Positions 569 to 60,628 of a stretch of DNA of 64,000 bases are shown in pieces. The stretch covers positions 1,431 through 65,430 of the forward strand of contig NZ_JBDNTB010000005.1 in assembly GCF_047719395.1 (NCBI RefSeq). The letters are read 5' to 3'. Origin of the DNA: Propionibacterium sp. Its GTDB lineage: Bacteria > Actinomycetota > Actinomycetes > Propionibacteriales > Propionibacteriaceae. The notes under the pieces were generated by a model. It was not told where the DNA came from. It ran no database searches and saw only the letters and a program-made list of their open reading frames with translations. The position numbers were made by a program, and so were the translations under genes. Every line of letters begins with the position of its first letter. Position 1 is the first letter of the stretch.

Positions 569-578
569 AGGTTTTCAG

Positions 579-1100: not shown

Positions 1101-1106
1101 TTTCGC

Positions 1107-2932: not shown

Positions 2933-2950
2933 TTTGTGTGCCCTTCTTTT

Positions 2951-3652: not shown

Positions 3653-3653
3653 G

Positions 3654-5186: not shown

Positions 5187-5261
5187 GGGATGACCCTTCT
5201 GTCTACAGGTGTGTGCAGCATCTGAACCGAGTGTGGGGCGAGTGTCCAAGTCGGTTCTGGG

Positions 5262-6635
5262 TCAGGCGGCTTCGGCCTCAACCGGGGTCAACTCGTGGGT
5301 CGACTCCTCGAGCTTCAGATCGACCTGCTTGAGCGTGAGCCCCTTCGTCTCGGGTGCGCACGAGATCGCCACAATCGAGATGAGGGCCATGAATCCCAGG
5401 TAGACCGCAATGGCATAGCCGGTGCCGAACGACCGATACAGGGCGAGGGCGATGATTGGCGACAGGGATCCTGCGATGAGGGAAGCGATGTTGTAGGCAA
5501 CCGACGTGCCGCTGTAACGCACCGGAGTGGGAAACAGCTCAGAGAAGAATGCCCCGATGGATGAACTGTAAACACCGAAGATGAACAATCCACCGACCGC
5601 AGCGGCGATCACCGCCGGGATTGTCTGCATGTTCAGCAGGAAGAAGAAGACGAACCCGTAGAAGACGGTCGCGATCGAAGCGGCGATCAGGATCGGCTTG
5701 CGGCCGACACGATCTGCGAGCAGGGCGAACAGCGGAATGGTGACAATGGCGACCGCTTGTCCGATCATCACCGCGTTGAGCACCGAGCCTCGACCCATAT
5801 GGTGAATCTGTGTCATGTACGTGATGATGAAGAGCGAGTAGAGATAGAAACCGGCGTTCTCACCCATCCGCATGCCGATAGCGATGAGAATGTGGCGCCA
5901 GTAGTCGCGGAACAACGGGATCAGCGGAACCTTGTTGATCTTTGACTGTTCCTGTGCGGAGTGTGTCTCAAGGTCTTTGAACAGTGGTGTCTCCTCGACG
6001 TAAAGCCGCAGCAGGAGCCCGATGATGACGAGCACGCTCGAGAGCGCGAAAGCTATCCGCCATCCCCACGCCATGAATGCGGATCCCGGCATTGCCACCG
6101 CAAGGACGGCAAGCACACCGGCGGAGATGAGGTTGCCGAGTGGCGGACCGACGTTTGGCCAGGATGCCCAGAAGGCACGCTTCGAGCTCTTTCCTTCGCT
6201 GTGTTCGGCGACCAGGAGGACTGCGCCGCTCCACTCCCCACCCAGGGCGAACCCCTGAATGAGCCGGAGGAGGAGCAGGATCAGGGGAGCGAAGATGCCG
6301 ATCATCGCGTAGGTCGGGATGAAGGCGATGAGCAGGGTTGCTCCGCCCATGAGCACCAGACTGGTGATCAGCGTCGCGCGGCGGCCGTGCTTGTCACCCA
6401 TGTGACCGAAGAAGATGGCGCCGAGCGGACGCGACAAGAAGCCGGCGGCGAATGTGCCAAGCGCCAGCATCGTGCCGACCAATGGGTCGCTGGTCGGGAA
6501 GAACAGGTGGTTGAAAACCAGAGCCGATGCAGTTCCGTAGAGGAAGAAGTCATACCATTCCACGGCCGTACCAGCGACGCTTGACGCGGCTACCAAACCC
6601 ATACTGGACGATCGCGTATGTGTTGTCGATGTCAT
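5262..6635 (-). CDS. MFS transporter, metabolite:H+ symporter (MHS) type
   Basis: 457 aa and about 12 hydrophobic segments, with the MFS loop motif GHMGDKHGRR. First gene of the operon. Confidence 0.9.
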   Translation of the reverse strand: MTSTTHTRSSSMGLVAASSVAGTAVEWYDFFLYGTASALVFNHLFFPTSDPLVGTMLALGTFAAGFLSRPLGAIFFGHMGDKHGRRATLITSLVLMGGATLLIAFIPTYAMIGIFAPLILLLLRLIQGFALGGEWSGAVLLVAEHSEGKSSKRAFWASWPNVGPPLGNLISAGVLAVLAVAMPGSAFMAWGWRIAFALSSVLVIIGLLLRLYVEETPLFKDLETHSAQEQSKINKVPLIPLFRDYWRHILIAIGMRMGENAGFYLYSLFIITYMTQIHHMGRGSVLNAVMIGQAVAIVTIPLFALLADRVGRKPILIAASIATVFYGFVFFFLLNMQTIPAVIAAAVGGLFIFGVYSSSIGAFFSELFPTPVRYSGTSVAYNIASLIAGSLSPIIALALYRSFGTGYAIAVYLGFMALISIVAISCAPETKGLTLKQVDLKLEESTHELTPVEAEAA

Positions 6636-6753
6636 GAGGATCCTTTGCTTGCGAATTCGGCCGGGGGCCTACCCTCGGCCGGTTCGAGGTTCTGAGATCA
6701 GATGCCAACTCGGGTCTCGGTTACGCAGCCTCTTGATGGAGAATGTAGACACA

Positions 6754-6783
6754 CTGTCGACAATCATCCAGGGCTGTCGACAG
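6754..6783. promoter_or_regulatory. Two adjacent TGTCGACA-core palindromes, candidate GntR operators
   Basis: ctgtcgacaat (6754-6764) and the perfect 10-bp palindrome ctgtcgacag (6774-6783). Their centres are 20 bp apart, 120-150 bp upstream of the MFS start codon. Confidence 0.5.
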
Positions 6784-6991
6784 TTGTTCACGAGTCTGTA
6801 ACGGATGAAACAGGCCCACAATCGGGCTGTAATGCTGCGGTTACAAGCGGCTAGAAACGGCTATGGCAAGCGAGTATGCGAGTCTTCATCATGAAATCTG
6901 TTGGCTTGGAGGCGTCGGTGGTGGAGTTGAGCCCAGAAGTCATCAGCATCCCTACCGGAGAGGCGGGCTCGGGTGTACGGCCAAGAGAGCT

Positions 6992-7009
6992 GAGATTGTC
7001 GACAATCTC
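6992..7009. promoter_or_regulatory. Perfect 18-bp palindrome gagattgtcgacaatctc with the same core as 6754-6783
   Basis: The sequence is exactly self-complementary. It shares the TTGTCGACAA core with the sites at 6754-6783 and lies in the same intergenic region. Confidence 0.45.
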
Positions 7010-7118
7010 TTCAGATCATGAAGTCATGTTCGAAGTGCAGCGATTGGCTGGGAAGGCTCCTCGAGAGCTCAATTCCACATCCACCAGGCTCAGACGGCGA
7101 TGGTGCGCACCCCAAAGG

Positions 7119-8375
7119 TCAGGAGCTCGTCCCACTCACCTGATGTGCCACGGGCTGCCAGGCCTCGTCCCGCTTGCCCAGCAGCGTCGCGGCCGACGGG
7201 AACACCAGCATGCTGAGTGCACCGCCTGCCACCAGGCATGACGCCAGTGGTCTGGCCATCAGCCCCTGGTTGACGGCAACTTCGGTGACTGCGACGATGA
7301 TCGGCAGACCAGCCGAGGCGTAGAGGGCCAGCTGAACTTGCTGTACCGGCCGGGTGAGTCCGGAGCCAGTGGTGGTGAAACGCTCTGCCAACCACACCGG
7401 TATTCCTCGAGTGAGGAGCACGGCTCCCAGCGTGCCCACCGTGATCCAGATGTGTGCACCCACCTCCGCCAGGTCGATGGACATTCCGCTGATCACGAAG
7501 AACACCGGCACGAAGAAGCTGTTGGCAAGCACTCCGATGCGGGTGTCCAGAGGCTTGGTGTCCTTGCCTGCGACCAGGCGGAGGCACAATCCGGCCATGA
7601 ATGCGCCCAGCGCCACGTCGATGTGGAAGAGCGCTGCCAGAGCCATCAGCCCCACCAGCAGCAGCATGATCAGGCGCAGAATCATCGCGTTGAGCTTTTC
7701 CCGGCCGGTCTTGTCGAACCACTCTTGCAGGCGCTCCACCTCGGCCCTTGGCAGGGCGGCGATGCGCCTGGCCCTGGACATTTGGTGTTTGCGCGTGGAC
7801 CAGGCCAGGAAGACGGTCAGCAGCGCGAAGCCGATGAGAACCAACGCCCCGATCCAGGGGCCGTTCCCCGACAGCAGCAGGGCCATCGCCACCACCGGGC
7901 CGAGCTCGCCGACCGTGCCGTGGGCCAGGACTGCGCGTCCCAGCTTCGAGTCGAGCAGACCGGAATCTCGCAGGATCGGCACCAGCGCGCCCAGGGCTGT
8001 GGAGCTGAACGCGATCCCGTGTGCCGTCGCGCTGAGCCACGACCCAGGATGCAGCACGAGCAGCGCGAGGGCCACACCAACCGCGAGGCTCACCAACCAG
8101 GTGAGCGAGGCGCGGTGCAGCTGGCGTTTCTGCAACTCTGCCGGGTCGATCTCGAACCCGGCAGCGAGGAACAACAGGCCGAGGCCCAGCTGCCTGATCA
8201 TCGGCAGGCCGTCCGGACTGGCCAGGCCCAGCACAGAGGGCCCGATGGCCACGCCCAGACCGAGCAGGCACACCACCTCAGGCAGCAGTGTCCGAGTGTT
8301 CCGGGCGATCAGTGGAGCGATCACCGCTGCCAGCACCACCCAGAACAGCGACAGGTCGGCCCCGTTTGTCACCAT
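7119..8375 (-). CDS. Cation:proton antiporter (CPA/Kef-type Na+/H+ exchanger family membrane domain)
   Basis: Polytopic membrane ORF. Start set at ATG 8375 (MVTNGADLSLFWVVLAAVIAPLIA), because the upstream 55 codons of the track ORF are non-membrane and low-complexity. Confidence 0.8.
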   Translation of the reverse strand: MVTNGADLSLFWVVLAAVIAPLIARNTRTLLPEVVCLLGLGVAIGPSVLGLASPDGLPMIRQLGLGLLFLAAGFEIDPAELQKRQLHRASLTWLVSLAVGVALALLVLHPGSWLSATAHGIAFSSTALGALVPILRDSGLLDSKLGRAVLAHGTVGELGPVVAMALLLSGNGPWIGALVLIGFALLTVFLAWSTRKHQMSRARRIAALPRAEVERLQEWFDKTGREKLNAMILRLIMLLLVGLMALAALFHIDVALGAFMAGLCLRLVAGKDTKPLDTRIGVLANSFFVPVFFVISGMSIDLAEVGAHIWITVGTLGAVLLTRGIPVWLAERFTTTGSGLTRPVQQVQLALYASAGLPIIVAVTEVAVNQGLMARPLASCLVAGGALSMLVFPSAATLLGKRDEAWQPVAHQVSGTSS

Positions 8376-13138: not shown

Positions 13139-13160
13139 GCGGGCGGCCGTGGCCGCCCGG
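13139..13160. terminator. GC-rich hairpin between convergent genes
   Basis: ggcgggcggcc gt ggccgcccgg, immediately after the TAG at 13136-13138 and 7 nt before the convergent stop at 13167. Confidence 0.4.
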
Positions 13161-13166
13161 GATCAG

Positions 13167-14732
13167 TCATTCTCCGATGGGCTGTGATGTCACGGAGAGC
13201 AGACCACGGGCATCGCAGCTGATGCTGATGGTGCGCCGCCACGAGTCGCTGGCTTCAGGGTGATCCGAACGCCGGTGCCAGCCGCGGGTTTCTGGCCTGG
13301 CGATGGCAGCGGCGGCGATCGCACCGCCCACCGTGCGAAGATTGGTGGTCGTGAGGTTCCGCTCGTCGAGCTCATCGTCAGCGGGCAGCCGCGACAGGAA
13401 GTCGAAGGCGCTGCGCAGCCGCTCGTGTTCGCGCACCATGCCGAGGGCGGTGTCGGCTGCGGTGTGGATGCCCTGCAGCGTGCTCACCGGGGTGCACCCA
13501 TCGGGTTCGCGCGGCACAGGTTCACCCGCCGCGGGCAACTGCCCGGATGCCAGCGCCTCACCGACCGCATCACCGGTGACCAGCGCCTGCAGCAGAGACA
13601 CATTGGCCGGGCCCTCGGCGCCCATCGCTCCCGTGCAACTGGCCTCGCCGGCAGCCCGCAGCCCGGGCACCGAGGTTGCGCCATGGGCATCCACCGCGAT
13701 CCCGCCGATCATCGTCTGGGTGGCCAGCCGGACGGGCACCGGCACATGAGCCGGGTCGACACCGTGCTCTCGGCAGGCCCGGGCGGTAGACAAATAGTCA
13801 TCGGAATCCCAGGCGTCCTCGCCGAGAATGCGCGTGTCCAGATAAATATCGCGATGTTTTGCGGCCCGGGCGTCGGCCACCGCGACAGCCAGTTCGCACG
13901 GCGAATGCGGCGGCAGCGACTCCGACCAGATCGGCTGCTGGTCGCCGTCCACCAGATCCGCGCCGTTTCGCCACAGCGTGGAGCCGAGCTCCACCAGGGG
14001 CTCGCCGGGCAGAGCCATCCGGCCCGAGACGGCGAGCGCGGTGGGGGTGAAGAAGACGAACTCCAGGTCTCGCAGGGTGGCACCTGCGCGCAACGCCATG
14101 GCAAGGCCATCGCCGGTGGCGGCCCGCGGCGTGGTGGTGTCTGTCCACAGCTGGCCGGCACCGCCACTGGCCAGCACCACGACGGGCGCCAGGTAGTCGC
14201 CCACAACTCCGTCGCGGCCGAGTACACGCAGTCCCGCCACATGGCCGGATTCGTCGGTCAGCACATCGACGGCCCGGCGGTCGGTGTCGATGCCCAGAGT
14301 GCCCGAGGGCTCGGCGGCCTCGGAGCGAACCAGCGATGACAAGGTGCGATACACCGTCATGCCAGCCGCCTGCCGCGGATCAGGGGTGCTCGGCATGGCT
14401 GCCGCAATGCGGTCGAACTGGTCGAGCACGCGGGGCACAGCATTGAGGAAATCCTTGGCAGCGGTCTGGTCGGCCAGTCCAGCGCCCTCGCGGACAAAGG
14501 CCTCGACGTCCGGCGGGGTGCGCCACTCGTCAAATGGCGAGGTTGCCCAGGCGGTGGCCGATGTGATGAGGCGTTCTCGACTGATCAACACCGAGGGCAC
14601 CCCGGAGGCCAGCAGCCGGGCCGACACGCTGAGGCCTGCAGCGCCGCCACCGACCACCACGACGCCGGTGCGCCGCGTCCACTCCGGCTCAGGCGTGGTG
14701 ATCTGCCGGGCCACTCGCATCGTCGTCGCCAT
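13167..14732 (-). CDS. FAD-dependent oxidoreductase, L-aspartate oxidase/fumarate reductase flavoprotein-like (divergent)
   Basis: Rossmann motif VVVVGGGAAGL. Clear NadB-like blocks VVLASGGAG...TGDGLAMALRAGATLRDLEF and RPETRGWHRRSDHPE. Several canonical catalytic positions appear substituted (see findings). Confidence 0.8.
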   Translation of the reverse strand: MATTMRVARQITTPEPEWTRRTGVVVVGGGAAGLSVSARLLASGVPSVLISRERLITSATAWATSPFDEWRTPPDVEAFVREGAGLADQTAAKDFLNAVPRVLDQFDRIAAAMPSTPDPRQAAGMTVYRTLSSLVRSEAAEPSGTLGIDTDRRAVDVLTDESGHVAGLRVLGRDGVVGDYLAPVVVLASGGAGQLWTDTTTPRAATGDGLAMALRAGATLRDLEFVFFTPTALAVSGRMALPGEPLVELGSTLWRNGADLVDGDQQPIWSESLPPHSPCELAVAVADARAAKHRDIYLDTRILGEDAWDSDDYLSTARACREHGVDPAHVPVPVRLATQTMIGGIAVDAHGATSVPGLRAAGEASCTGAMGAEGPANVSLLQALVTGDAVGEALASGQLPAAGEPVPREPDGCTPVSTLQGIHTAADTALGMVREHERLRSAFDFLSRLPADDELDERNLTTTNLRTVGGAIAAAAIARPETRGWHRRSDHPEASDSWRRTISISCDARGLLSVTSQPIGE

Positions 14733-14782
14733 ATCAGCTCCTGGAAGGCACAGTCGAGGTTCCCGCCCAGCATCCCACAGTG
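14710..14782. repeat. Left copy of the 73-bp direct repeat (contains the SD, ATG and first 7 codons of the nadB-like gene)
   Basis: gccactcgcatcgtcgtcgccatatcagctcctggaaggcacagtcgaggttcccgcccagcatcccacagtg matches 23294-23366 at 67 of 73 positions. Confidence 0.9.
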
Positions 14783-14803
14783 GCTCACCTCAACCCGTCG
14801 ACC

Positions 14804-16237
14804 TCAGCGCTTGTAGTCACCCACCTTGAGCCATCCATCTGAACCAGTCGTCTGGTCGCGGTTGGCGAACCGTACCGGAACCCCGCCATTCACTGGATTC
14901 TTCACCCGCACTGCCAATTCGTAGGTGTCCTTCGGGAGCTTCTCAACCTGGAGGGTCCCCTCTGCCGTGGCCTGCTGACCAGGCTGGATGTTGTCGATCG
15001 AGCGATTGGCGACTGTTGAGGCCACGACATTTCCCGCCTTGTTGAGGAGCGCGATGTCCATTGGCCATGAGTAGTAGAAGGGGGCGACGCCATTGTTCTT
15101 CAGAACCACATCGACATTGATGGGGCCTTGCAGCTCAGTCTTTATGCCGGCCTTTTCTACCTGCATGATGTAGCCCATGGATGCCTCGGACTCGAGAGCG
15201 CTCTGCCGAGAATCACCGCTCACTCCTGGGGCAAAAGCTTGCTGGTTGACGAGCCAGCTGACATGGGACTGCTGAATTGCATAGGACATCCACGGCACAC
15301 AACTCGTCGCCGCAAACAAGCACGATTGACTGTCCGGGTAGACCTCGCCGCCGATTGGAGCCGTTTGCCACTTGTCAAGGGCCCCGGCTGACTTCATCAT
15401 CGAAAGGAAATGCCAACTCTCGGTGGGTAAGGTGGACGGTCCGAACGAATCATCGTGGTAGCCATTGTTCAGTTGGGCATTCCATGTCTCCGGGTAGCGA
15501 GTCAACGTGCGGGTCTTGTGGAAGGAGGAATCCCACTGCTTCGTCAAAGCAACCAGAGTATCTTGATTGGCCAACCAATTCTCCGGGAGGTCCCAGCCAT
15601 TCATGGGATAGGTATGACCCTCACCCCAGAAACCGATCAGCCCCTGCGTGATGAAGCCAATCCGAGGATCGCCATCATAACGTTGCCCCAACGCGGAGAC
15701 CAAGTCCAGCATCATGTTCTTTATTCGGGGATCATCATAATCGGGTGAGAAACTTATGCCATTGTTGTTGTAATCGTCGTAGCGCCGGGTTGTGTCGATT
15801 CCCTCGTCGATCAAATACTGCGGCACGCCTGTTTCACGGCCAGGATAGTCCAGATACAGGCGAAATACGGATTGGTGTCCTCGGGCGGCGATGGCGTTGA
15901 GTTGTGCGTCGAGGGCAGTCCAGTCGTACTGCTTCTCGCCCTTGACGATGGCATTGACAGGTAGATAGAACCATTCCATCGAATAGGGAAGTGCATCTTC
16001 ACTGAACCCGGGTGGTGAGTTCGGATCCGGAGCAAATGGAATGTATCCCTTCAACGCCGTCTCGGCTGGCGGAGCTGCAGTGGGAACATTTGTCCAAGTT
16101 GTCGGCAAATATCGGCTGATAAAAATTCCGCTTGTTAAAGCGACAACTATCAAGATAGCGAATATCACCCACCTTCGAGCAGAGACCTGGTGGTTTGTTG
16201 AGGTCTTCTCAACGGCTGAGGCGGTGTCGCTGTCCAT
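14804..16237 (-). CDS. Membrane-anchored glycoside-hydrolase-like protein (DUF4832-type), paralog 1
   Basis: N-terminal TM anchor WVIFAILIVVALTSGIFI. Blocks shared with paralog 2: ALPYSMEWFYLPVNA, VFRLYLDYPGRETGVPQYLID, GFWGEGHTYPMNG, NGVAPFYYSWPM. Confidence 0.75.
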   Translation of the reverse strand: MDSDTASAVEKTSTNHQVSARRWVIFAILIVVALTSGIFISRYLPTTWTNVPTAAPPAETALKGYIPFAPDPNSPPGFSEDALPYSMEWFYLPVNAIVKGEKQYDWTALDAQLNAIAARGHQSVFRLYLDYPGRETGVPQYLIDEGIDTTRRYDDYNNNGISFSPDYDDPRIKNMMLDLVSALGQRYDGDPRIGFITQGLIGFWGEGHTYPMNGWDLPENWLANQDTLVALTKQWDSSFHKTRTLTRYPETWNAQLNNGYHDDSFGPSTLPTESWHFLSMMKSAGALDKWQTAPIGGEVYPDSQSCLFAATSCVPWMSYAIQQSHVSWLVNQQAFAPGVSGDSRQSALESEASMGYIMQVEKAGIKTELQGPINVDVVLKNNGVAPFYYSWPMDIALLNKAGNVVASTVANRSIDNIQPGQQATAEGTLQVEKLPKDTYELAVRVKNPVNGGVPVRFANRDQTTGSDGWLKVGDYKR

Positions 16238-16266
16238 GATTGTTAACGATACGCCAAGGCTTCACG

Positions 16267-16298
16267 GTGTGCCCATCGTCCTTCCAATCAGGGCACAC
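16267..16298 (-). terminator. Hairpin between the two paralogs
   Basis: Perfect 8-bp arms gtgtgccc / gggcacac with a 16-nt loop, 7 nt downstream of the stop at 16305. Confidence 0.3.
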
Positions 16299-16304
16299 AT
16301 TCAG

Positions 16305-18116
16305 TCAGGGAAGAAGATGACCAATAGTCTTCAGCAGATCCCAATTCACGTTCCCGTTGGCATAGGAGTACCCATTGCCATGCCCATATGACCAACCATC
16401 ACCTGACGCCCATGCGTAGTCAGGACCCCATCCGTAGTTGTAGCCCGGGCCGTAGCCATAACCATAGCCCTGATTGACGGTATTGCCGGCGTCCGTGGTC
16501 TGCCAACTCGTGTTGTAGTCGTGAGAAGCGGGTTGAGAGGTGGTTTGCGGTGCGGCAGTGATTGTGACAGTCGTGGTGGCGGTGGCGGTGGCGGTGGCGG
16601 TGGAGGGCATCGGAGCCGTGGATGCGGCCGTCGTTGCAGATGGAGTCACGGTGGGAATGGGCGTAGAAGTGTCATTCGACGGAGTGACTGAAGCCGAAGG
16701 GGTTGGCTGAGCCTCCGTGCTGCCGCTGCCACTGTTGGTGGCCAGCGTTCCCAGGGTGTCCCAGCCAGTGAGCGTCTGGTCCTGTCCAGCCGCCGCGAAT
16801 TTGAGCGGAACCCCATTTTCCAGAGGGTTCACAACACGCATCACCACGTGGTACGACGCGTTGGGAATGCCATTCAGGGAAATCTCGGTGGAGAATTCGT
16901 TGACTTGACCGGGAAGCACTGCTGACAGATCACCGGGAAGAGTCTTCTTGGCCGAGATTTTCCCGGCGCTGTCCACGAGCGCTACCTCCATTGGCCACGA
17001 ATAATAGAAGGGGGCGACACCGTCATTCTTGAGACGAACCCCGATGCTTGCCGTTCCTCCCTCGGCACTGATACGCGTCTCAGTCGGGCGGATGACATAG
17101 CCCATGGCGGCCTGAGAATCCAAAGCCTTGTTCCGTGCATCGCCGGAATATCCAGGCGCAAAGGCTTGCTGGTTGATGAGCCAACTGACATGGGTTTGCT
17201 GAATTGACGTGGGGATTGGATCGGGAGCGCAGTCCGATGAAAACATGCACGACTGAATATCGGGATAAACTTCCCCGCCGATCGGCTCAGCCTCCCACTT
17301 TTCAGTTGCGCCTGCAGCCTGCAGCTGCGACAAGAAGTGCCAACTGGCACTGGTCAACGTGGCCGAGCCGAAAGAATCATCGTTGTACCCACTGGCCGAC
17401 CCCGCATTCCAGGACTCCGGGTAGCGCACCACGGTGTGCGTGGTGTGGAAGGCGGCATCCCATGCCTCCATCACCTCCGACTGGGTTTCCTGCCCAGGCA
17501 TCCAGTTCTCCGGGGAAGCCGAGCCGTCCATCGGATAGGTGTGATCCTCTCCCCAGAAGCCGATCAAGCCCTGGCTGATGAACCCAATCCTCGGGTCGCC
17601 GTCGTAGCGCTGTCCCAGCGAGGACACGAGATTCAACATCATGCTCTTCACGCGAGGATCGTCGTAATTCGGGGAGAAACTCTTTCCGTTGTTCCCATAG
17701 TCGTTGTAGTGCCGACTGGTGTCGATCCCAGCGTCTATCAAATACTGGGGTACGCCCGTGTCGCGCCCCGGGTAATCGAGATACAACCGGAAAACTGCTT
17801 GGTGCCCACGTCCGGCAATGGCGTTGAGCTGAGAGTCCAGTGCAGTCCAGTCATATTGGCCCTGGCCCTTCACCACTGCGTTCACGGGCAAGTAGAACCA
17901 TTCCATCGAATACGGCAGCGCGTCGCTCCCCAACCCAGATGATGAGTTCGATTCCGGGGCAAAGGGCATGAAGCCCTTCAATGGGTTGCTCGTGGGCGCC
18001 GATGCGGCGGTGAGCGCTTGCCACGATCCTGGGTCGGCTCTCGCAGCGCTGGGCTGAGCGAGTATGGCGAACAGCGCGAGAACAATGGCGAGCAAACGCG
18101 ATGCGTGCTTGGGCAC
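16305..18116 (-). CDS. Secreted glycoside-hydrolase-like protein (DUF4832-type), paralog 2, with a Thr/Pro/Ser linker and a Gly/Tyr/Asn/Trp-rich C-terminal tail
   Basis: GTG start with GGGAG upstream. Signal peptide LLAIVLALFAILAQPSAARA. Same conserved blocks as paralog 1. The tail reads ...TATATATATTTVTITAAPQTT...GYGYGYGPGYNYGWGPDYAWASGDGWSYGHGNGYSYANGNVNW. Confidence 0.75.
   Translation of the reverse strand: MPKHASRLLAIVLALFAILAQPSAARADPGSWQALTAASAPTSNPLKGFMPFAPESNSSSGLGSDALPYSMEWFYLPVNAVVKGQGQYDWTALDSQLNAIAGRGHQAVFRLYLDYPGRDTGVPQYLIDAGIDTSRHYNDYGNNGKSFSPNYDDPRVKSMMLNLVSSLGQRYDGDPRIGFISQGLIGFWGEDHTYPMDGSASPENWMPGQETQSEVMEAWDAAFHTTHTVVRYPESWNAGSASGYNDDSFGSATLTSASWHFLSQLQAAGATEKWEAEPIGGEVYPDIQSCMFSSDCAPDPIPTSIQQTHVSWLINQQAFAPGYSGDARNKALDSQAAMGYVIRPTETRISAEGGTASIGVRLKNDGVAPFYYSWPMEVALVDSAGKISAKKTLPGDLSAVLPGQVNEFSTEISLNGIPNASYHVVMRVVNPLENGVPLKFAAAGQDQTLTGWDTLGTLATNSGSGSTEAQPTPSASVTPSNDTSTPIPTVTPSATTAASTAPMPSTATATATATTTVTITAAPQTTSQPASHDYNTSWQTTDAGNTVNQGYGYGYGPGYNYGWGPDYAWASGDGWSYGHGNGYSYANGNVNWDLLKTIGHLLP
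16575..16604. repeat. Hexanucleotide microsatellite (GGTGGC)x4 plus GGTGGA inside the paralog 2 linker
   Basis: Read directly from the sequence. It encodes the (Ala-Thr)n run and is in-frame, so slippage would change linker length only. Confidence 0.85.
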
Positions 18117-18230
18117 TATGAGCTCCCTGTGGTGGAGGTCTGCGTTAGAGGGGTGGAGGTCATCTCACGCGATGACTGAGCCTGGCGATACACCTGAAGA
18201 ATAATTGAGAATAACTTAGCTTGAGTTCAA

Positions 18231-18268
18231 TGTCCGCAGGGTGGTTGGTCACTGTCCGCAGGGTGGTT
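18231..18268. promoter_or_regulatory. Two perfect 16-bp direct repeats tgtccgcagggtggtt with a 22-bp period, upstream of paralog 2
   Basis: Copies at 18231-18246 and 18253-18268, 115-150 nt upstream of the GTG at 18116 and next to an AT-rich stretch (gaagaataattgagaataactt). Confidence 0.4.
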
Positions 18269-18389
18269 CGGATCCAGCGTGCTGTGCACGTACGTGGGCA
18301 ATGGTGGCCGTCCCGTGGGGCGCCGGAGGACATCGGAGCGTTGCCCCACGTGTGCCGCGCCGGTCCGAGCGTCATGGGCGCAGCCGGGT

Positions 18390-19472
18390 TCAAGAAGATT
18401 CGTTGTCGAGAGGTTTCTTCATGAAGATGCACTGCTGAGGAGGCAATCTGACCGTTGCGCCGTCATTGAATTCAGGGGGGAAAGTGAGGTCGACGTGGTG
18501 CGTGGAGGTGAGGTTGACCGCGGCATAGCCATCCTCGAAAGTGCGCGACCAGCATCCGCACTCTCCCTCGACGCCGCTGACCGGCGCACCGAGATCCCAG
18601 TCGGCCTCCGGCTGCCAAGGAGCTCCGTCGTAGCTGTCGTGGTCCGTCGCAGTGACGGCAAAGTCGCCTCCACCGCTGAATATCCAACCCGCAGCCAGTG
18701 CGGTCAGAAAACGATCGCGCTCGTTGGTCTCGTCGGCAGCAGTCCGCATGATGGAGAGGCCAGGGCCGTTGAGTTGCGACATCTGCGCATGGCACACTTC
18801 GGCGGGGAATGGTTCATTCGCGCTTGCAGCGAGCCACACTTCTTCAAATCCACCGCCGAATCGTGCATGACGATCCCAACGGCCGGATTCACGCCGGGAT
18901 TCGGCAATGTTCGGCACGAGGATCTTGTCAACCGCGTTGAGTGCAGCTCCGGCTTGCGTGATGAACTCGTCCAAGGCTTCACGAACCTCGGGCATTCCGT
19001 ATCCTCCTTCAAGAGGAAGGATTCCGTAGTAGTCCTCGAAGACGTCGTTGTCGGCCATCACTCCGTCGAACGGTCCCACAGAGATCTCGCGGACAACATT
19101 GCGGATCCAGCAGTCGCGATATCGCTGGTTCCACACCGCCATCTGCCAGTGGCCGGTGTAGCCGTTCCACTCGATCCGGGTCTTGCCAGCTGAGCCCTCA
19201 CGATGGGCGAACATGTCTTCGCCGATCTTCTCGGCCTCCCCGAACCCCACTCCTGAACTGCGAACGGGACCCGGCTCGAAGGAGCGGGTAGAACTCAGGC
19301 ACTTGTAAGCCAGCACCGTCACGGCCGGCTCCATGGCCTTCAGCTGAGCGGCTGCGACAGTCTCCCATGGCTGGAGGATTGCGACGCGGCAGTGTTCGGC
19401 GGCAAACCGAATCTCAGATTCGCGGATCTGCTCATCGCCGTAGCGCACCCACGCGGTGAAGCGACGGGTCAC
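18390..19472 (-). CDS. Hypothetical cytoplasmic protein. A polysaccharide-processing (TIM-barrel hydrolase-like) role is suggested by context only.
   Basis: 360-aa ORF without a signal peptide. Its ATG overlaps the PelF-like stop (ATGA), implying translational coupling. I recognised no diagnostic motif. Confidence 0.5.
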   Translation of the reverse strand: MTRRFTAWVRYGDEQIRESEIRFAAEHCRVAILQPWETVAAAQLKAMEPAVTVLAYKCLSSTRSFEPGPVRSSGVGFGEAEKIGEDMFAHREGSAGKTRIEWNGYTGHWQMAVWNQRYRDCWIRNVVREISVGPFDGVMADNDVFEDYYGILPLEGGYGMPEVREALDEFITQAGAALNAVDKILVPNIAESRRESGRWDRHARFGGGFEEVWLAASANEPFPAEVCHAQMSQLNGPGLSIMRTAADETNERDRFLTALAAGWIFSGGGDFAVTATDHDSYDGAPWQPEADWDLGAPVSGVEGECGCWSRTFEDGYAAVNLTSTHHVDLTFPPEFNDGATVRLPPQQCIFMKKPLDNESS

Positions 19473-21268
19473 AGGGCGTCCCGACCTGGCTGCGGGACCG
19501 AGGATTCATCAGAAGCGCGAGCGGCTTTGCCATCCGGGCCCTGAGAGATGTCCTCCCGAGTCCGGGCAGATTCAACTCTGGGAACAATGGCTGTCGCCCT
19601 CGACGCTTCTTCGTCAGCGGAGGATGAGGAGATCCAGTCGTCAGCGTTTGCTTCAGAGGCCGACTGCGCCACCGCACCGGTGAGGAATTGTGCTATATCG
19701 CTGGGATCGTTCATACGTCCGATTGCCCGGTACAGCGCGTGGTAACGCGCCATCACATCTTCCAGACGGAAGCTTGACTGGACACGACGATGAGCCATTT
19801 CGACATAGCGGCCGTAACGCGGCAGGTCATTGACAAGCGAAATCGTTTCTCTCGCCATTCCCTTGATGTCGCCGGCATCAATGAGCACGCCGCAAGGTCC
19901 GAGTTGTGTGCCGTCACGGTCGATCAGCACATCATCAAGAACCTGGCGCATACCGCCGACCTCGGTTCCGACCGTGGGAATGCCGCTGGCCATCGCTTCG
20001 AGCACCACAATCGGCTGACCCTCGTTGTAGCTCGCCATGAGCAACAGGTCATAGGAGGTGATGAGCTTTCGGACATTGACGGTGCCCAGGAGGTGCACGT
20101 AGTCCGACAACCCGAGATCGACGATGAGTTTCTCGCATTCAGCCGTGTATTCGGGCACATGTTCCTTGGGGCCCATCACGTCGAGGGTGAAGTTGGTGAA
20201 GCCCGAGTCAATCATGACCTTCGCCGCATGGATGAGGTCCAACACGCCCTTGATGGGCACGATCCGCACGATAGAGCACAGCTTCCACGTCTGCTTGCCG
20301 TGCGCAACGATCTCGGCAGTGATTTCCTTCCGGATCTCATAGCGGGGCTCGAACTCGGCAAGAGGCATACCGTTCGGCAGTACGATCGCGCGTTCGGTGG
20401 GGGACCCGAGGGCCCGGGCTTCGCTCAACGCCAGCGGGTACAGGTAGGTGATGATCTCGGCCTTCGGGTAGCAGAACGGCCCCATCTCGATCCACCAGGT
20501 CATCCAGGCGCGCTGCTTGGGCGTGGCCTCGAAGATCTTGTAGTCCTCCCGTAGCAACGGCAGCGCCATGTTGCGGTCGAGGAGCTCGTTGACGGTGTCG
20601 CGAATGTAGAGGTTGTGTTCGGTCAGCAGGAAATGAGTGCCATTCTGGCGCGCTGCGGCTGCAGCGGTCGCTGCCGCATAGCCAGTGGTGTGTGCGTGGT
20701 AAACCTTCGCCTTCGGGAAATCATGGTCCAAAATGGCATAGGCCAAGGAGAAGAAGTCGCGTAGCACCCAGAAGCAGTCCGACAATGACATTCCCAGGGC
20801 ATTCCAGCGATCGATGACCACATCCATGAATTCTTTGGTGCCCAGCAATGGCCAGATGCGGAATTTCCTCGTCCGGGGGTTCACGCCATCGTCATACAGA
20901 GACCACAAGGGTTCAACATCGTCTTGCTGGACGGCGGCCAATGCGTCGAGAAGGCGATTGGCGAGGTCGCGTCGCGCGCGTGAGCCGGTTGGTAGGTCAC
21001 GAGGGCCGAGGGACAGCAACGCTTTCCGATTGGTTTGAAAGCTCTGGAAGTGAACCTTCACCCACTTCACATTCTCCGGGACCTCGTACAGATCCTTCAG
21101 TGGTGAGTTCTCATCCCACGTGATGTGGATGATCCCGAAAGTGATGTCGGGATTCATGCTGATGATGTCATGGACGACAGCGGACACCCCACCCTTCAGG
21201 TATGGGTAAGTGGACTCCATGACAATGCACACGTCCACGTCGCAGAATTCAGTGCGGCTGTAAGTCAC
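19469..21268 (-). CDS. PelF-like glycosyltransferase (DUF3492-type N-domain plus GT4 domain)
   Basis: The N-terminus DVDVCIVMESTYPYLKGGVSAVVHDII...ITFGIIHI resembles the remembered PelF N-terminus (DVCLLLEGTWPYVRGGVSSW...). The GT4 E-x7-E region is NEGQPIVVLEAMASGIPTVGTEVGG. Confidence 0.75.
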   Translation of the reverse strand: MTYSRTEFCDVDVCIVMESTYPYLKGGVSAVVHDIISMNPDITFGIIHITWDENSPLKDLYEVPENVKWVKVHFQSFQTNRKALLSLGPRDLPTGSRARRDLANRLLDALAAVQQDDVEPLWSLYDDGVNPRTRKFRIWPLLGTKEFMDVVIDRWNALGMSLSDCFWVLRDFFSLAYAILDHDFPKAKVYHAHTTGYAAATAAAAARQNGTHFLLTEHNLYIRDTVNELLDRNMALPLLREDYKIFEATPKQRAWMTWWIEMGPFCYPKAEIITYLYPLALSEARALGSPTERAIVLPNGMPLAEFEPRYEIRKEITAEIVAHGKQTWKLCSIVRIVPIKGVLDLIHAAKVMIDSGFTNFTLDVMGPKEHVPEYTAECEKLIVDLGLSDYVHLLGTVNVRKLITSYDLLLMASYNEGQPIVVLEAMASGIPTVGTEVGGMRQVLDDVLIDRDGTQLGPCGVLIDAGDIKGMARETISLVNDLPRYGRYVEMAHRRVQSSFRLEDVMARYHALYRAIGRMNDPSDIAQFLTGAVAQSASEANADDWISSSSADEEASRATAIVPRVESARTREDISQGPDGKAARASDESSVPQPGRDAL

Positions 21269-21316
21269 TTGATTCTCCTTGCCGGTAAAGATTCAGAGCG
21301 CTGGGACAGGCGGCGC

Positions 21317-22768
21317 TCACCATTGCATGGCGAATCGCCAGAACATCTGATAGGGAATGCTCCCCCAGACTTGACGTGTGCGGATGTAACCGACTATGGA
21401 CAACACGACATCCACAGCAATGACGAACCAAATGGTCGAACTCACCGGGGGGACGAGCAAGGCGAACACGGCCAGCAGATGGATGCCGGCGAGCCAACAG
21501 GCCCAACCGCGATGCTGGATGTATTCAAGGTGATAGCAAAGGATTGTCACGACCAGGGCCGCGATCGGCCCGATGTAGAGACCAAGGGGCAGCTGGGGCC
21601 CGCCAATCACCTGGAGCAACAGGTGCAGGCCAAGTGCTGCGACAGCGGCAACCGCCAACGTGCGGGCAATTGCGTGGCCCACCACATCAGAGACGAGATT
21701 CGCCTGCCTGCGCAACTCCTTGGTCCCGCTTCTCTGCACCGCACCACTGGCCTGCTCCACGGCAAGATCAAGATTTGGGGCGAGTTGTGCAAAGTAGTAG
21801 CTGTACGCGAGTACGGCAGGGACCAGAGCCAGATACATGTCAAAGATGCCCATGGCGGATTGCGTCATGAGGAGGACCACGACCTTGTCCGCCCACAGGA
21901 CCGATCCGGTGAGGAAGCCACGCGCAGTGTCGGTTATGTATCCTCGGAATTCCTTGGCCGACGGCCGGTGCCAGTGCACATCTGAACTCACGGCGAGCAG
22001 GATGGCCACATTTGGGATGGTGCCTGCGATCGGTGCCAGCAGCCAGAGCTGAGGTGCGATGAAGATGACTGCTGCATAAGCGGCCCAGGAAACCACCAGC
22101 ATGACATCGAGCCGAGCCTGATTGATGACGACTTGCGACTGTGCGAAGAATGCGTGGGCGATAATGCCGAACATCACGTAGAGAAATGCCGCTGGTGGCC
22201 AGTGGGTGATGGCTTCGACGACCACCATGAAGATCGCGGCCACCGGCAGCGTTGCCAAAACGATGTTGGGCCACAATGCGAGGACCCGCCCTGCAACCAG
22301 ATGCGGATCACGCTGGTCCTTGAGATCCCAGAAGTATCTGTAGAACGCAACACAGACGGCCTGACTCATCCATGGCACGGTGACGGATACAGCCAGGAAA
22401 ACACTTCCAGCTTGGACCGAATTCACATCCTGCGCATCAATACGCGTGATGACAAGCGGGAAGACAATCATCAACAAGACAGTGGGCGACATCTTCGCCA
22501 AGAGGCCTCCGATGCCGCGCAGTGCATCAGGGGCCCCGGCATGAAATGGTGCCGCGTCATATCGTCCCCTCACCAGCATCAAAACAGTGATGCCGATCAC
22601 GACTGCCATGGCAGCGATGAGGTACGGCTTGGACAAGTGGATGTCTGGAGCCAACGCAAGAAGTGCGATTGCTACCGCTGATACCACCCACAGCATTGGG
22701 TGGGTGCGTTTGATCGTGATGATTTGTCCGGATGACGGTTTAATTGGTTTAATTTGTCCGGATGTCAC
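21317..22768 (-). CDS. Polytopic membrane protein, candidate polysaccharide exporter (PelG-like by position only)
   Basis: 483 aa and at least 10 hydrophobic segments. It lies directly upstream of the PelF-like gene with a 48-nt gap. I saw no sequence-level match to PelG. Confidence 0.45.
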   Translation of the reverse strand: MTSGQIKPIKPSSGQIITIKRTHPMLWVVSAVAIALLALAPDIHLSKPYLIAAMAVVIGITVLMLVRGRYDAAPFHAGAPDALRGIGGLLAKMSPTVLLMIVFPLVITRIDAQDVNSVQAGSVFLAVSVTVPWMSQAVCVAFYRYFWDLKDQRDPHLVAGRVLALWPNIVLATLPVAAIFMVVVEAITHWPPAAFLYVMFGIIAHAFFAQSQVVINQARLDVMLVVSWAAYAAVIFIAPQLWLLAPIAGTIPNVAILLAVSSDVHWHRPSAKEFRGYITDTARGFLTGSVLWADKVVVLLMTQSAMGIFDMYLALVPAVLAYSYYFAQLAPNLDLAVEQASGAVQRSGTKELRRQANLVSDVVGHAIARTLAVAAVAALGLHLLLQVIGGPQLPLGLYIGPIAALVVTILCYHLEYIQHRGWACWLAGIHLLAVFALLVPPVSSTIWFVIAVDVVLSIVGYIRTRQVWGSIPYQMFWRFAMQW

Positions 22769-23293
22769 GTGTAACTCCTTGGGGCGGGCGGCTTCGACAA
22801 TCGAGGTGCCGCTGGTTCTGCACAGTGAGCCTGCGCCGCCTCAGTGGCGCAGGACACCTCCAAGGCGTCACTGCACCAACCACCATAGAACAGAAGTCTT
22901 GCAGGTGCGGAACCTACGTAGAGGTAGGACCATTCCAGGACCCGGACGGGGCTCAGGTGGCTGGCAAGTCTCTGAAACCAGCGGCGTGTGGTTTGCGCCA
23001 ATCAGGCAGCGCGGCCATCAGATGATGTTCCTGGAAGGAAGGTATCCGCCCTTGCCAGAGGAACTCCCTGGTATGCAGTTGTTGCGAACTGATTCTCGCC
23101 GTCCTGGTTGAAGGAAGAGCCCGCTGATGGTAGCGGTAATCGTGCCTGATATCTGGCATATGTCAATTATTGGTTCAGAAATGGTTGTCAGCCCTCACGC
23201 AGGTGCTGTTGCACGGCCTTTTGCACAGGAGGTCATCTCCGGTTCGCCGCTCTGCGGGTCGGTCACCAGCTCAGCAGATGTGCGCACCAGATG

Positions 23294-23366
23294 GCCGCTC
23301 GCATCGTCGTCGCCATATCAGCTCCGGGAAGGCACAATCGAAGTTCCCGCCCGGCATCCCACGGTG
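23294..23366. repeat. Right copy of the 73-bp direct repeat (fossil SD + ATG; the frame ends after 17 codons)
   Basis: gccgctcgcatcgtcgtcgccatatcagctccgggaaggcacaatcgaagttcccgcccggcatcccacggtg. On the minus strand it reads AGGAG-N6-ATG GCG ACG ACG ATG CGA ..., giving MATTMRAAIWCAHLLSW-stop. Confidence 0.9.
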
Positions 23367-23504
23367 AAGGACCAGCGATCCAGGATGGCACAATTGTTCG
23401 GCGGAGCGCCTCAGCAGCAGGCCAGATGCCGGGAGCCATGGGATCGCCCTGATGCACTTTCGGGTTCGCCACCTGGCTTCCCATGACGATGTTGGTGAGG
23501 ATGG

Positions 23505-24272
23505 ATGATGACCGAAGACGGCGCTGACAGGAAGCAGGCTGACAGGAAGCAGGGCGCGAGCACGCGCCACATACCGCACCCGGAGGATGCCGACCAAACT
23601 TCGGCCAACACGCTGAACTGGCTGCGGGCAGGGGTGCTCGGCGCCAACGACGGCATCGTGTCGACGGCAGGTCTCGTGATGGGCGTTGCAGGCGCCAGCA
23701 CCAACGTGCAGGTCATCCTGGTTGCCGGCGTCGCGGGACTCGTGTCCGGTGCGTTGAGCATGGGTGCTGGGGAGTACATATCGGTGAGCACCCAGCGCGA
23801 CTCGGAGCGCGCCATGATCACCACCGAGAAGCAGGAACTCGCCACGGACCCGGAGGGTGAACTGGCCGAGTTGACCGGGATGTACGAGGAAAAGGGTCTG
23901 TCCCACGAGCTCGCGACGAAGGTCGCCGAGGAATTGACCGCGCGCGATGCACTGGCAGCCCACGCCGAGGTGGAGCTCGGTATCGACATGGAGGAGCTCG
24001 CGAACCCATGGCAAGCTGCCCTCGCCAGCGTGGTGAGTTTCTCGGTGGGTGCCCTGGTGCCGCTGGTCTTCATCCTGTTGTCGCCGCCATGGGCACGGCT
24101 GTGGGCGACGGTGGTCGCCGTGGCGATTGCGCTGGCGGTCACGGGAATCGTGAGTTCGAAACTGGGGCATTCGCCTGCTCGGGCTGCCACGATCCGCAAT
24201 GTTGTCGGCGGTTTCGTGGCCATGGGCGTCACCTTCGGAATCGGCACCCTCATTGGCCGGGGCGTCGCATGA
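23505..24272 (+). CDS. VIT1/CCC1 family iron/manganese transporter
   Basis: LNWLRAGVLGANDGIVSTAGLVMGVAGA followed by C-terminal TM segments. GAGGA lies upstream of the ATG. Confidence 0.85.
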   Translation: MMTEDGADRKQADRKQGASTRHIPHPEDADQTSANTLNWLRAGVLGANDGIVSTAGLVMGVAGASTNVQVILVAGVAGLVSGALSMGAGEYISVSTQRDSERAMITTEKQELATDPEGELAELTGMYEEKGLSHELATKVAEELTARDALAAHAEVELGIDMEELANPWQAALASVVSFSVGALVPLVFILLSPPWARLWATVVAVAIALAVTGIVSSKLGHSPARAATIRNVVGGFVAMGVTFGIGTLIGRGVA

Positions 24273-24293
24273 CGTGTGTGGTGGTGAGCCGTG

Positions 24294-25136
24294 ATGAGTG
24301 ATCCACATCCCTTCGCGCAGCGCTGGAACCACAACACCCACTACTACCCGCGCATCGCGGAGCTGGTGGAGGGCCGCCACCTGGTACTGGACGTGGGCTG
24401 CGGCGAGGGCACGCTGGCGCGCTATTTGGCGACGGGGGACACCGGCGTCGCGCAGGGTGCTGCTGGTGGCGGATCGTCGTCTGGGGCCCCTGGGACTGGC
24501 CCTTCGGATGACCAGGAGATTCCCAGCAGAGACGGCGGGGCCGGAGCGGCCCAGAATCTGGCACCAGTTGAAACTGACAGCCCTCTCGATGTCCACGACG
24601 CAACCCAGCCTGTTCAAGGCACTGGACATGACCGAGCTGCTGCTGCGCCCGGTGGCAGTACCTTCCGGCATGAGGTGATCGGTCTCGACATGGATGCGTC
24701 GGTGCTGCCCAAGGACTCGCCAGGAACTCACTTCGTGCTTGCCGACGGCCAGCAGATTCCCTATCCGGCGGGGTGCATCGACGCCGTGGTCTGCGTGGCT
24801 GCCCTGCATCACATGAACGCTCGGCTGGCGCTCACCGAAATGCACAGAGTGCTCCGCCCCGGAGGCCGCATCGTGATACTCGGCCTGGCGCATTGGGACT
24901 GGCGTCCCCAGGACGTCGCCGCCGACCTGCGAGACCTGGTGGTCAACACCTGGATGCGTACCCGCATGAAGCGCTGGGAACCCGATACCCTCAAGGAACC
25001 CGCCGAGTTGAACTGGTCCACCACACGAGCAACTGTCCAGGCGGCGTTGCCCGGGGCGAGCTTTCAGCGAGTGCGCATGTGGCGCTGGCTAGCGGTGTGG
25101 GACGACCCAGCGACACCGGGCGCCGCGCTCTCATGA
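24294..25136 (+). CDS. Class I SAM-dependent methyltransferase with a long low-complexity insertion
   Basis: Motif I VLDVGCGEGTLARYL, then about 85 aa of Gly/Ala/Ser/Pro-rich sequence before VIGLDMD, and later AALHHM...LRPGGRIVI. Confidence 0.8.
   Translation: MSDPHPFAQRWNHNTHYYPRIAELVEGRHLVLDVGCGEGTLARYLATGDTGVAQGAAGGGSSSGAPGTGPSDDQEIPSRDGGAGAAQNLAPVETDSPLDVHDATQPVQGTGHDRAAAAPGGSTFRHEVIGLDMDASVLPKDSPGTHFVLADGQQIPYPAGCIDAVVCVAALHHMNARLALTEMHRVLRPGGRIVILGLAHWDWRPQDVAADLRDLVVNTWMRTRMKRWEPDTLKEPAELNWSTTRATVQAALPGASFQRVRMWRWLAVWDDPATPGAALS

Positions 25137-59785: not shown

Positions 59786-60628
<843 letters not shown>

Follow-up and report, generated by a model that had tools for sequence, protein, structure and literature searches.

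The question raised by this locus is how a block of polysaccharide-type genes came to lie between two copies of the start of a neighboring gene when the block carries no recombinase of its own. The window, by which we mean the whole stretch of DNA that was analyzed, is 64,000 nucleotides of contig NZ_JBDNTB010000005.1 from a Propionibacterium species. The block, here called the island, is flanked on one side by a nadB-like gene and on the other by a VIT gene.

The duplicated gene start and its single-copy counterparts

The features that define the site are as follows.

13167 to 14732, minus strand: intact gene for a nadB-like FAD-binding flavoprotein of 521 aa (Pfam FAD_binding_2)
14709 to 14782, minus strand: left repeat copy, −50 to +24 of the nadB-like gene, codons 1 to 8 included
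14783 to 23292, minus strand: island-specific DNA, 8,510 bp, lower in G+C and atypical in tetranucleotides, absent from the orthologous site in four relatives
23263 to 23316, minus strand: remnant 17-codon ORF, MATTMRAAIWCAHLLSW and a stop, read from the sequence as a stub of the duplicated nadB-like start
23293 to 23366, minus strand: right repeat copy, contiguous with native VIT-side intergenic DNA
23367 to 23504, no strand assigned: remaining native VIT/nadB-like intergenic DNA, with the second copy (23379 to 23394) of a 16-mer that also occurs inside the 74-bp repeat
23505 to 24272, plus strand: VIT1-family transporter gene (Pfam), the ancestral divergent neighbor of the nadB-like gene

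The nadB-like protein matches the NCBIfam L-aspartate oxidase models well under their cut-offs, and its name at NCBI is "FAD-binding protein". The repeats at its start are in direct orientation, begin 8,584 bp apart, and share 68 of their 74 bases; the six differences comprise 5 transitions and 1 transversion. A sequence-only reading of this DNA had described them as 73 bp with 67 identities and the same count of substitution types, which is right except that the repeat runs one base further. Similarity stops abruptly at both ends. A longer duplication that has since decayed was considered and rejected, as beyond the coding-side end there are only about 15 matches in 27 positions, a gap being needed to obtain them, and that is the level of chance. 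A degenerate pattern made from the 74-mer finds exactly 2 sites in the window, which are the two copies, and 0 in 100 shuffles. A search of 185,579 species genomes with the 27-nt core of the repeat gave a single occurrence, at the start of the orthologous nadB-like gene of one other species, and the JGI metagenomes gave none. The 74-mer is thus not a dispersed generic repeat, a possibility that the earlier reading had raised against itself.

The left copy contains an upstream motif (GGGATGCTGGGC), the Shine-Dalgarno sequence AGGAG, the ATG (14732), and the gene up to codon 8; the reading had the Shine-Dalgarno sequence and ATG correct and counted 7 codons. The right copy retains ATG GCG ACG ACG ATG CGA as it had been read, but not the identical Shine-Dalgarno sequence credited to it, since one of the six differences turns AGGAG into CGGAG. 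Another changes the final T of the upstream motif to C (GATGCC). Outgroups polarize 3 of the 6 differences, 1 being derived in the left copy and 2 in the right. Derived changes in both copies fit divergence after a duplication in situ. As a test of which copy is native, the outgroups were set aside because the polarized differences split in this way, and the 8% divergence fits a copy imported with the island equally well. Conspecific contigs, assembled independently from eight sequencing runs, are all occupied and show the same two repeat variants, so the island and its repeats are not an assembly artifact.

In P. cyclohexanicum, P. freudenreichii, and one Propionibacterium metagenome-assembled genome, the VIT and nadB-like genes are adjacent and divergent, with a single homologous leader between them and no island. 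The gene order of methyltransferase, VIT, nadB-like gene, and BcrAD-type activase is kept. A fourth relative has no VIT gene at the locus and also lacks the island. The adjacency with one leader copy, and the ancestral order of VIT, shared intergenic region, and nadB-like gene, had been predicted from the window and are borne out by the three relatives. If the island and one repeat copy are removed from the occupied locus, the native intergenic region is reconstructed as 23317 to 23504, and its 188 nt are the length found in P. cyclohexanicum. No empty site was found within the species, every conspecific contig being occupied, and the species itself was not found in the JGI metagenomes. Nor did a strain or sister species close enough to date the insertion turn up, with the nearest nadB-like orthologue at 63% identity.

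Composition sets the same DNA apart. The island has a G+C fraction of 0.52 to 0.64 against 0.65 to 0.71 outside, GC3 of its genes is 0.65 to 0.74 against 0.74 to 0.85 for flanking genes, and the tetranucleotide distance from the window background peaks over it; no other part of the window is as atypical in composition. The lower G+C claimed earlier between the repeats is therefore one of three outlying measures. Neither a uniform composition nor an island carried by all relatives is what we find. Its atypical composition, its occurrence in a single lineage, and the empty sites of the relatives make this a horizontally acquired genomic island in the descriptive sense of the term.

Island genes and related clusters

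The island consists of five co-directional genes and a leader.

22769 to 23292, minus strand: island leader, 524 nt, non-coding, separating the right repeat from the first island gene
21317 to 22768, minus strand: first island gene, polytopic membrane protein of 483 aa, 5′ of pelF in the position of PelG
19469 to 21268, minus strand: PelF-type GT4 glycosyltransferase, 599 aa (Pfam DUF3492 and Glycos_transf_1, the GT1 domain; NF038011)
18390 to 19472, minus strand: GHL15 putative glycoside hydrolase, 360 aa (PF14885, 138.7 bits), overlapping the pelF stop by 4 nt
16305 to 18116, minus strand: DUF4832 protein X1, 603 aa (Pfam), with a signal-like N-terminus
14804 to 16237, minus strand: DUF4832 protein X2, 477 aa as the longest ORF (Pfam), the last island gene

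The glycosyltransferase scores 233.4 bits over residues 12 to 513 against the NCBIfam PelF model NF038011, for which the cut-off is 100. The 483-aa protein is polytopic by its hydrophobic segments and has no sequence match in Pfam, NCBIfam, or PDB; the Pfam and NCBIfam PelG models match neither it nor ten homologues, and the homologues are named "hypothetical protein" in their sources. Its AlphaFold model (pLDDT 78.8, pTM 0.80) was searched by Foldseek with best hits to 4mlb, 6nc6, and 3vvp at E = 3 × 10−4 to 3 × 10−3 and TM scores of 0.39 to 0.48, so that the predicted fold matches the MOP-superfamily transporter class of MATE, MurJ, and Wzx. An assignment as PelG by sequence thus failed by every route tried, and the fold class alone is assignable. 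The GHL15 protein has no sequence match to solved structures, PelA included. X1 and X2 are exported paralogues; X1 has a Thr/Pro-rich linker and a Gly/Tyr-rich tail behind its signal-like segment, and X2 has an N-terminal membrane anchor and a stop codon 21 nt from the left repeat.

The description of five minus-strand polysaccharide-type genes with no integrase, transposase, or tRNA holds in all its parts. There is no tRNA in the window, Pfam and NCBIfam find no integrase, transposase, or recombinase domain either in the genes of the island or in ORFs from its non-coding DNA, and no terminal inverted repeats are present at the island ends.

The best comparison for the gene content is to the pel loci of Gram-positive bacteria, among them Actinobacteria, which likewise have a PelF-type GT4 beside a membrane protein of the 12-helix class and a glycoside hydrolase. 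DUF4832 genes are reported as accessory genes of Gram-positive pel loci, and Gram-positive operons in which just pelF and pelG were identified are on record (Whitfield et al. 2020, PMC7112168; Bundalovic-Torma et al. 2020, PMC7112194). Unlike pel loci, the island lacks PelD, the c-di-GMP receptor, and PelE, neither of which is matched among its five proteins; no deacetylase domain of the PelA type is found in them, and no further island ORF has a family match. The likeness of the membrane protein to PelG is limited to its position and its predicted class of fold, no curated PelG model recognizing it, and the GHL15 hydrolase has no demonstrated link to the PelA hydrolase domain. The five are Pel-type exopolysaccharide genes in content, and a Pel-like polymer may be produced from them.

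The nearest PelF homologues are 70 to 75% identical in protein and their clusters about 70% identical in DNA. They lie on high-G+C metagenome contigs, at a different locus and in a different module order, beside a gene whose product ends like what we take to be a Clp-type chaperone. The trio of membrane protein, PelF, and GHL15 genes (G, F, and A) is also found in Arthrobacter agilis and metagenome relatives, Arthrobacter having this core only and no DUF4832 genes. In the related cluster L010, the order is X1-X2-G-F-A as against G-F-A-X1-X2 in this island, and no homologue of the 74-mer lies between its X2 and G. The non-coding parts of related clusters, L010 included, have no similarity to those of the island, and no integrase adjoins them. 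A PelF-type cluster is present on a Paenarthrobacter plasmid. A phage or plasmid origin was rejected, there being no phage match and only distant plasmid matches, to the Paenarthrobacter pelF region and an Actinomyces DUF4832 gene. No donor of the island was found.

Routes of entry

Together these findings show an insertion of about 8.5 kb of foreign DNA in the 5′ region of the nadB-like gene and a 74-bp duplication, from −50 to +24. On balance it is probable that the cassette, which encodes no recombinase, entered independently of any recombinase and duplicated the target in doing so, in an ancestor of this Propionibacterium species. The gene is intact because the left, proximal copy keeps the genus-conserved motif, the ribosome-binding site, and the start codon. 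The right, distal copy stayed joined to the native intergenic region and now heads the island as a defunct 17-codon stub. By this account the copies later drifted apart by their six substitutions, which are fixed in all strains sampled. How the joints were made is conjecture. The two joints of the incoming DNA would have been staggered by 74 bp, through capture of an illegitimate or end-joining type or with the joints on sister chromosomes, and selection would have kept an event that left the nadB-like gene functional. A duplication of 74 bp is, to our knowledge, far longer than those made by known transposases, and a transposon or insertion sequence was rejected on that length and on the lack of a transposase and of inverted repeats at the ends. 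We know of no well-characterized bacterial pathway that routinely gives a target duplication of 74 bp.

Non-mobile foreign DNA can reach a chromosome without a recombinase by Campbell integration or by homology-facilitated or double illegitimate recombination (e.g. PMC3240628). Homology-facilitated illegitimate recombination normally deletes target DNA, whereas here the target is duplicated. Campbell integration does leave its homologous segment as flanking direct repeats, as seen here, and an unlikely alternative, the one that survives best, is that a circular DNA, either a plasmid-borne or an excised cluster, carried a segment of about 74 bp with about 92% identity to the leader and start of the nadB-like gene and was integrated by a single homologous crossover. 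Direct repeats made of target copies, abrupt ends, and 8% divergence are the leftovers to be expected of a homeologous single crossover; PelF-type clusters are known on plasmids, and the opposite module order of L010 is a permutation that a circular intermediate could give. That order difference may also be simple module shuffling, given that Arthrobacter has the core without the DUF4832 genes, and the dissimilar non-coding parts of L010 weigh the same way. The homology would be very short as well as 8% diverged, and RecA-dependent recombination works poorly on 74 bp at 92% identity. Moreover, the donor molecule, of which none was found, would need the island ends beside a nadB-like leader 92% identical to this one, hence would come from a very close relative in which the island is equally foreign, and the original insertion would still have to be explained.

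A second alternative is a degraded site-specific island, in which the repeats would be the attL and attR sites of an integrative element that was targeted to the 5′ end of the nadB-like gene, provided it with a substitute, and has since lost its integrase. The layout to compare is that of the dusA-specific islands, which insert at the 5′ end of their target, leave imperfect direct repeats, and keep the 5′ end of the gene complete, and which have a dedicated tyrosine integrase, a 21-bp att core, detectable excision, and a distribution over hundreds of genomes (Farrugia et al. 2015, PMC4482086). Our island agrees in its protein-gene target, imperfect repeats, and intact gene, and its lower G+C also suits that layout. 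It differs in that it lacks a recombinase, has a repeat of 74 bp, is known from one site only, and has no empty counterpart within the species. No integrase, excisionase, or remnant of either is present in an island tightly packed with five polysaccharide genes, as ORFs of the 524-nt and 273-nt non-coding stretches match no family at E up to 1; conspecific contigs show no variation at the repeats, and the related clusters have no neighboring integrase. No family of such elements exists in the 185,579 genomes, the 27-nt core being at no other locus. An integrase-mediated element was accordingly rejected despite its flanking repeats, there being neither recombinase gene nor recurrent att site in other genomes, and the degraded form of it is very improbable. 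That the island is ancestral in the genus and was deleted precisely elsewhere, by a recombination between 74-bp repeats that would regenerate exactly the empty-site structure of the relatives, is scarcely credible against four separate lineages without it (P. freudenreichii included), GC3 and tetranucleotide usage far from those of the host, and nearest homologues that are not in Propionibacterium genomes at this locus.

Considered as recombinase-independent insertion with a target duplication, this is a clear case of horizontal acquisition, rather ordinary apart from its unusual junction, and it does not overturn current understanding. Its value is as a well-documented natural entry of a non-mobile biosynthetic cluster lacking its own recombinase, in which the empty site and the two junctions have all survived. 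With its long duplication of the target and its undamaged recipient gene, the locus is a concrete system in which recombinase-independent integration could be tested in actinobacteria. The island further suggests that this species may, in contrast to its relatives from dairy and fermentation, produce a Pel-like matrix polysaccharide, with possible effects on aggregation or biofilm behavior.

Expression across the junctions

The last island gene is 71 nt from the nadB-like ATG (14733 to 14803), the distance given in the sequence-only reading, which had gone on to propose that the island separates the nadB-like gene from its presumed original promoter, placed in 23367 to 23504. That consequence is doubtful. 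The four relatives share one conserved intergenic element and no other, GGCAT(G/T)CTGAGC (GGCATGCTGAGC) at about −50 to −39. It belongs to the distal margin of the 74 bp that were duplicated and is therefore still present in the left copy, where it is a candidate promoter of the nadB-like gene. With six genes in one co-directional array, we infer that the native promoter region may read the island and that read-through into the nadB-like gene could occur.

It is also conceivable, though quite unlikely, that the 74-bp duplication is functional design and not a scar. One regulatory region would then have become two. The native VIT/nadB-like control region would drive the imported Pel-type operon, a self-sufficient core promoter in the 74-mer (TGG and GATGCT, at about −50 to −39) would keep nadB-like expression independent, and the T-to-C change on the right would be a sign that the two promoters have diverged. 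If true, an island without an integrase would have captured a promoter in nature by way of a long target duplication, and this could indicate an unrecognized end-joining or staggered-break route of gene acquisition in actinobacteria.

The 524-nt leader contains no recognizable RNA family or protein remnant, an Rfam scan of 14000 to 24500 giving nothing relevant, and its RNA fold at z = −2.55 is only moderately better than shuffles. Sites from promoter and terminator scans are no commoner than in shuffles, and none is at a junction. One weak terminator-like hairpin lies at 23136 to 23121.

Direct repeats and the empty site

The island (14783..23292, minus strand, 8,510 bp) lies between two copies of a 74-mer, at 14709-14782 and 23293-23366, which are in the same orientation with starts 8,584 bp apart. 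The copies are identical at 68 of 74 positions, the 6 differences being 5 transitions and 1 transversion, and similarity ends abruptly on both sides, where the sole possible extension has about 15 matches in 27 positions and includes a gap. Searched with a degenerate pattern that allows for both variants, the 64-kb window yields just these 2 sites, and 100 shuffles yield none. Read on the minus strand, the left copy spans -50 to +24 of a 521-codon ORF (13167..14732), the nadB-like gene, and contains the Shine-Dalgarno sequence AGGAG and the codons ATG GCG ACG ACG ATG CGA GTG GCC. In the right copy the ATG and six codons are preserved, CGGAG replaces AGGAG, and the reading frame reaches a stop after 17 codons.

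The sequence-only reading predicted that some relatives would have the VIT gene adjacent to the nadB-like gene with a single copy of the repeat, and such an empty site, with one homologous leader, is found in three of them.

Arrangement of the locus in four relatives
P. cyclohexanicum: VIT and nadB-like genes adjacent, divergent, 188 nt apart
Propionibacterium MAG: VIT and nadB-like genes adjacent, divergent, 120 nt apart
P. freudenreichii: VIT and nadB-like genes adjacent, divergent, 674 nt apart
Further relative (L027): VIT absent at the locus; rpiB beside the nadB-like gene; no island

Synteny in the first three is conserved on one side through sulfate-assimilation genes, rpiB, a methyltransferase gene and VIT, and on the other side through a BcrAD-type activase. 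Removing the island and one repeat copy from the window leaves a 188-nt intergenic region, which is the P. cyclohexanicum length. The homologous leader is a single copy in each of the four relatives, with the protein start MATTMR common to P. cyclohexanicum and the MAG and more diverged in P. freudenreichii and L027. Insertion with duplication of the target is shown.

The repeat itself is neither a generic element nor an artefact. The possibility that it recurs at many unrelated loci is not borne out: among 185,579 species genomes, a 27-nt core with one degenerate position matches once, where the orthologous gene of the MAG begins, and it has no match in JGI metagenome contigs. Conspecific contigs, assembled independently for eight sequencing runs, match the window at 99.6-100% identity, and among them neither an empty site nor any polymorphism within either repeat copy was found, although the island shows polymorphism of about 0.2-0.35%. 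Because every conspecific contig that extends to a junction carries the island with an unchanged left or right repeat variant, the structure is fixed in the species as sampled.

Between the nadB-like and BcrAD-type genes, P. cyclohexanicum has an MFS_3 transporter and ThuA (L002 11585-13664), the MAG has ThuA only, and neither gene is present in P. freudenreichii or in the window, where the gap is 28 nt (13139-13166), so that variation within the genus extends to the downstream flank of the site. In the conspecific metagenome contig L022, the methyltransferase gene downstream of VIT (2089-2931, corresponding to window 24291-25136) is called as three fragments and may be a strain-specific pseudogene; the contig differs from the window at only three positions, one of which is 24516.

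Composition and cargo of the island

The sequence-only reading had noticed repeats bracketing a lower-G+C island in the 5' end of the nadB-like gene, and this is confirmed. G+C is 0.52-0.64 in the island versus 0.65-0.71 outside, GC3 is 0.65-0.74 in the island genes versus 0.74-0.85 in the neighbours, and the tetranucleotide distance from the window background has its maximum over 14-24 kb. The island is foreign. Between the repeats are five genes, all co-directional.

Genes of the island
21317..22768, minus strand: membrane protein, 483 aa, polytopic
19469..21268, minus strand: PelF-type GT4 glycosyltransferase (NCBI PelF model, 233 bits versus a cut-off of 100)
18390..19472, minus strand: GHL15 putative glycoside hydrolase
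16305..18116, minus strand: DUF4832 protein with an N-terminal signal or anchor segment, paralogue of 14804..16237
14804..16237, minus strand: DUF4832 protein with an N-terminal signal or anchor segment, paralogue of 16305..18116

The 483-aa membrane protein is labelled "hypothetical protein" in the sources; it has no Pfam, NCBIfam or PDB sequence match, and a Pfam match is absent in ten of its homologues too. Its AlphaFold model (pLDDT 78.8, pTM 0.80) has best structural matches to MOP-superfamily transporters (MATE, MurJ, Wzx) with E = 3e-4 to 3e-3 and TM 0.39-0.48, and the MOP-superfamily fold is the fold class predicted for PelG. The identity of PelF is confirmed, and the membrane protein is a candidate PelG, assigned by position and fold class only.

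The trio of membrane protein, PelF and GHL15 is also found in Arthrobacter agilis and metagenome relatives. DUF4832 genes are accessory genes of Gram-positive pel loci (PMC7112168), and there are published Gram-positive operons with no pel gene identified other than pelF and pelG (PMC7112194). On this evidence the island is a reduced actinobacterial pel-type cluster, its cargo belonging to the known Gram-positive and actinobacterial pel-type clusters; PelD, PelE and a deacetylase are all absent from it.

No donor was identified. The closest PelF proteins, 70-75% identical, are from metagenome contigs, and the next closest, about 55% identical, belong to Arthrobacter, Kocuria and Kineococcus. 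In L010, the best related contig, G+C is 67% and the cluster adjoins a gene whose product, by our own reading, appears to resemble a Clp-type chaperone at its end. Its DUF4832 pair is upstream of the core formed by the membrane protein, pelF and GHL15 genes, versus downstream in the window.

In the window, the DUF4832 genes are tandem paralogues, 71-76% identical in DNA (15020-15776 versus 16950-17703) at an offset of 1,927 bp, and L010 has the same pair. An in-frame indel polymorphism of 6 nt or 12 nt among conspecific strains, at 16575-16586, falls in a GGTGGC repeat within the last (C-terminal) third of the DUF4832 protein of 603 aa.

Origin of the insertion and the nadB-like leader

No integrase, transposase, tRNA, terminal inverted repeats or recognisable RNA family is found in the island. 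The mechanism we favour is an insertion that needed no recombinase and had its joints staggered by 74 bp; with the nadB-like gene still intact, it would have been retained. Outgroups polarise 3 of the 6 repeat differences, giving the left copy one derived change and the right copy two, and derived changes in both copies fit divergence after duplication in situ, being compatible also with an imported copy. A Campbell-type single crossover could supply such a copy, but it requires a very close donor already having the island beside a nadB-like leader, and we consider it unlikely. The dusA-specific islands (PMC4482086) resemble the present one in that they insert at a 5' end, have imperfect direct repeats and restore the gene, but an integrase is their defining feature, and the present island does not belong to them because it has none; with no integrase remnant, no recurrence and no evidence of excision, a degraded att-type island is quite improbable. 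Least credible is an ancestral island followed by four losses, which would account for the empty sites but is at odds with composition and distribution. The event as a whole is of a type already known; its junction is unusually long and clean, and the empty site is verified.

When the leaders from the four relatives are aligned with both window copies, a single intergenic block is conserved, GGCAT(G/T)CTGAGC, located about -50 to -39 and followed by the Shine-Dalgarno sequence and the start codon. The block reads like a candidate extended -10 element (TGn + cATGCT). It is inside the 74-mer, 5 nt from the distal end, and is therefore retained by the left copy (GGGATGCTGGGC); in the right copy the final T of GATGCT is C. 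The earlier interpretation, insertion at the VIT/nadB-like site with duplication, stands in that part, and its further claim, that the nadB-like gene was severed from its promoter, is doubtful: it is unsupported because the left copy keeps the block, yet unrefuted. The 71 nt that separate the last island gene from the nadB-like ATG contain no terminator-like site, so that read-through from the island would also be possible.

The native VIT/nadB-like intergenic region also has two copies, 56 nt apart, of a 16-mer, ATTGTGCC(T/A)TCC(C/T)GGA on the minus strand, at 23323-23338 and 23379-23394, which may be an operator. The proximal copy falls within the 74-mer and is thus present also in the left repeat, at 14739-14754.

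Further features of the window

The NadB assignment of the 13167-14732 product is doubtful. The protein falls far short of the cut-offs of all curated L-aspartate oxidase models (at best 270 bits versus 639), its gene adjoins neither nadA nor nadC, and its NCBI name is only "FAD-binding protein".

A second lower-G+C stretch (about 0.61) with atypical tetranucleotide usage, at 1-8000, encodes an HpaB-type hydroxylase, a DUF2848 protein, a GntR/FCD-carbon-nitrogen hydrolase fusion and an MFS transporter, and may be another acquired segment, adjoining the BcrAD-type gene. Two repeated blocks, 77 nt at 79% and 53 nt at 85%, are shared by 41603-41780 and 60733-60899, which have the same orientation and lie some 19 kb from each other. 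Three 36-nt units in tandem at 60266-60376 (ACC ACA ACN ... CAG GCC TCG) are probably a Thr/Ser-rich coding repeat. Inverted repeats at 34262-34680 and 46372-46808, 71-75% complementary and with a Walker-A-like coding motif, probably represent paralogous genes for ABC ATPases, one on each strand.
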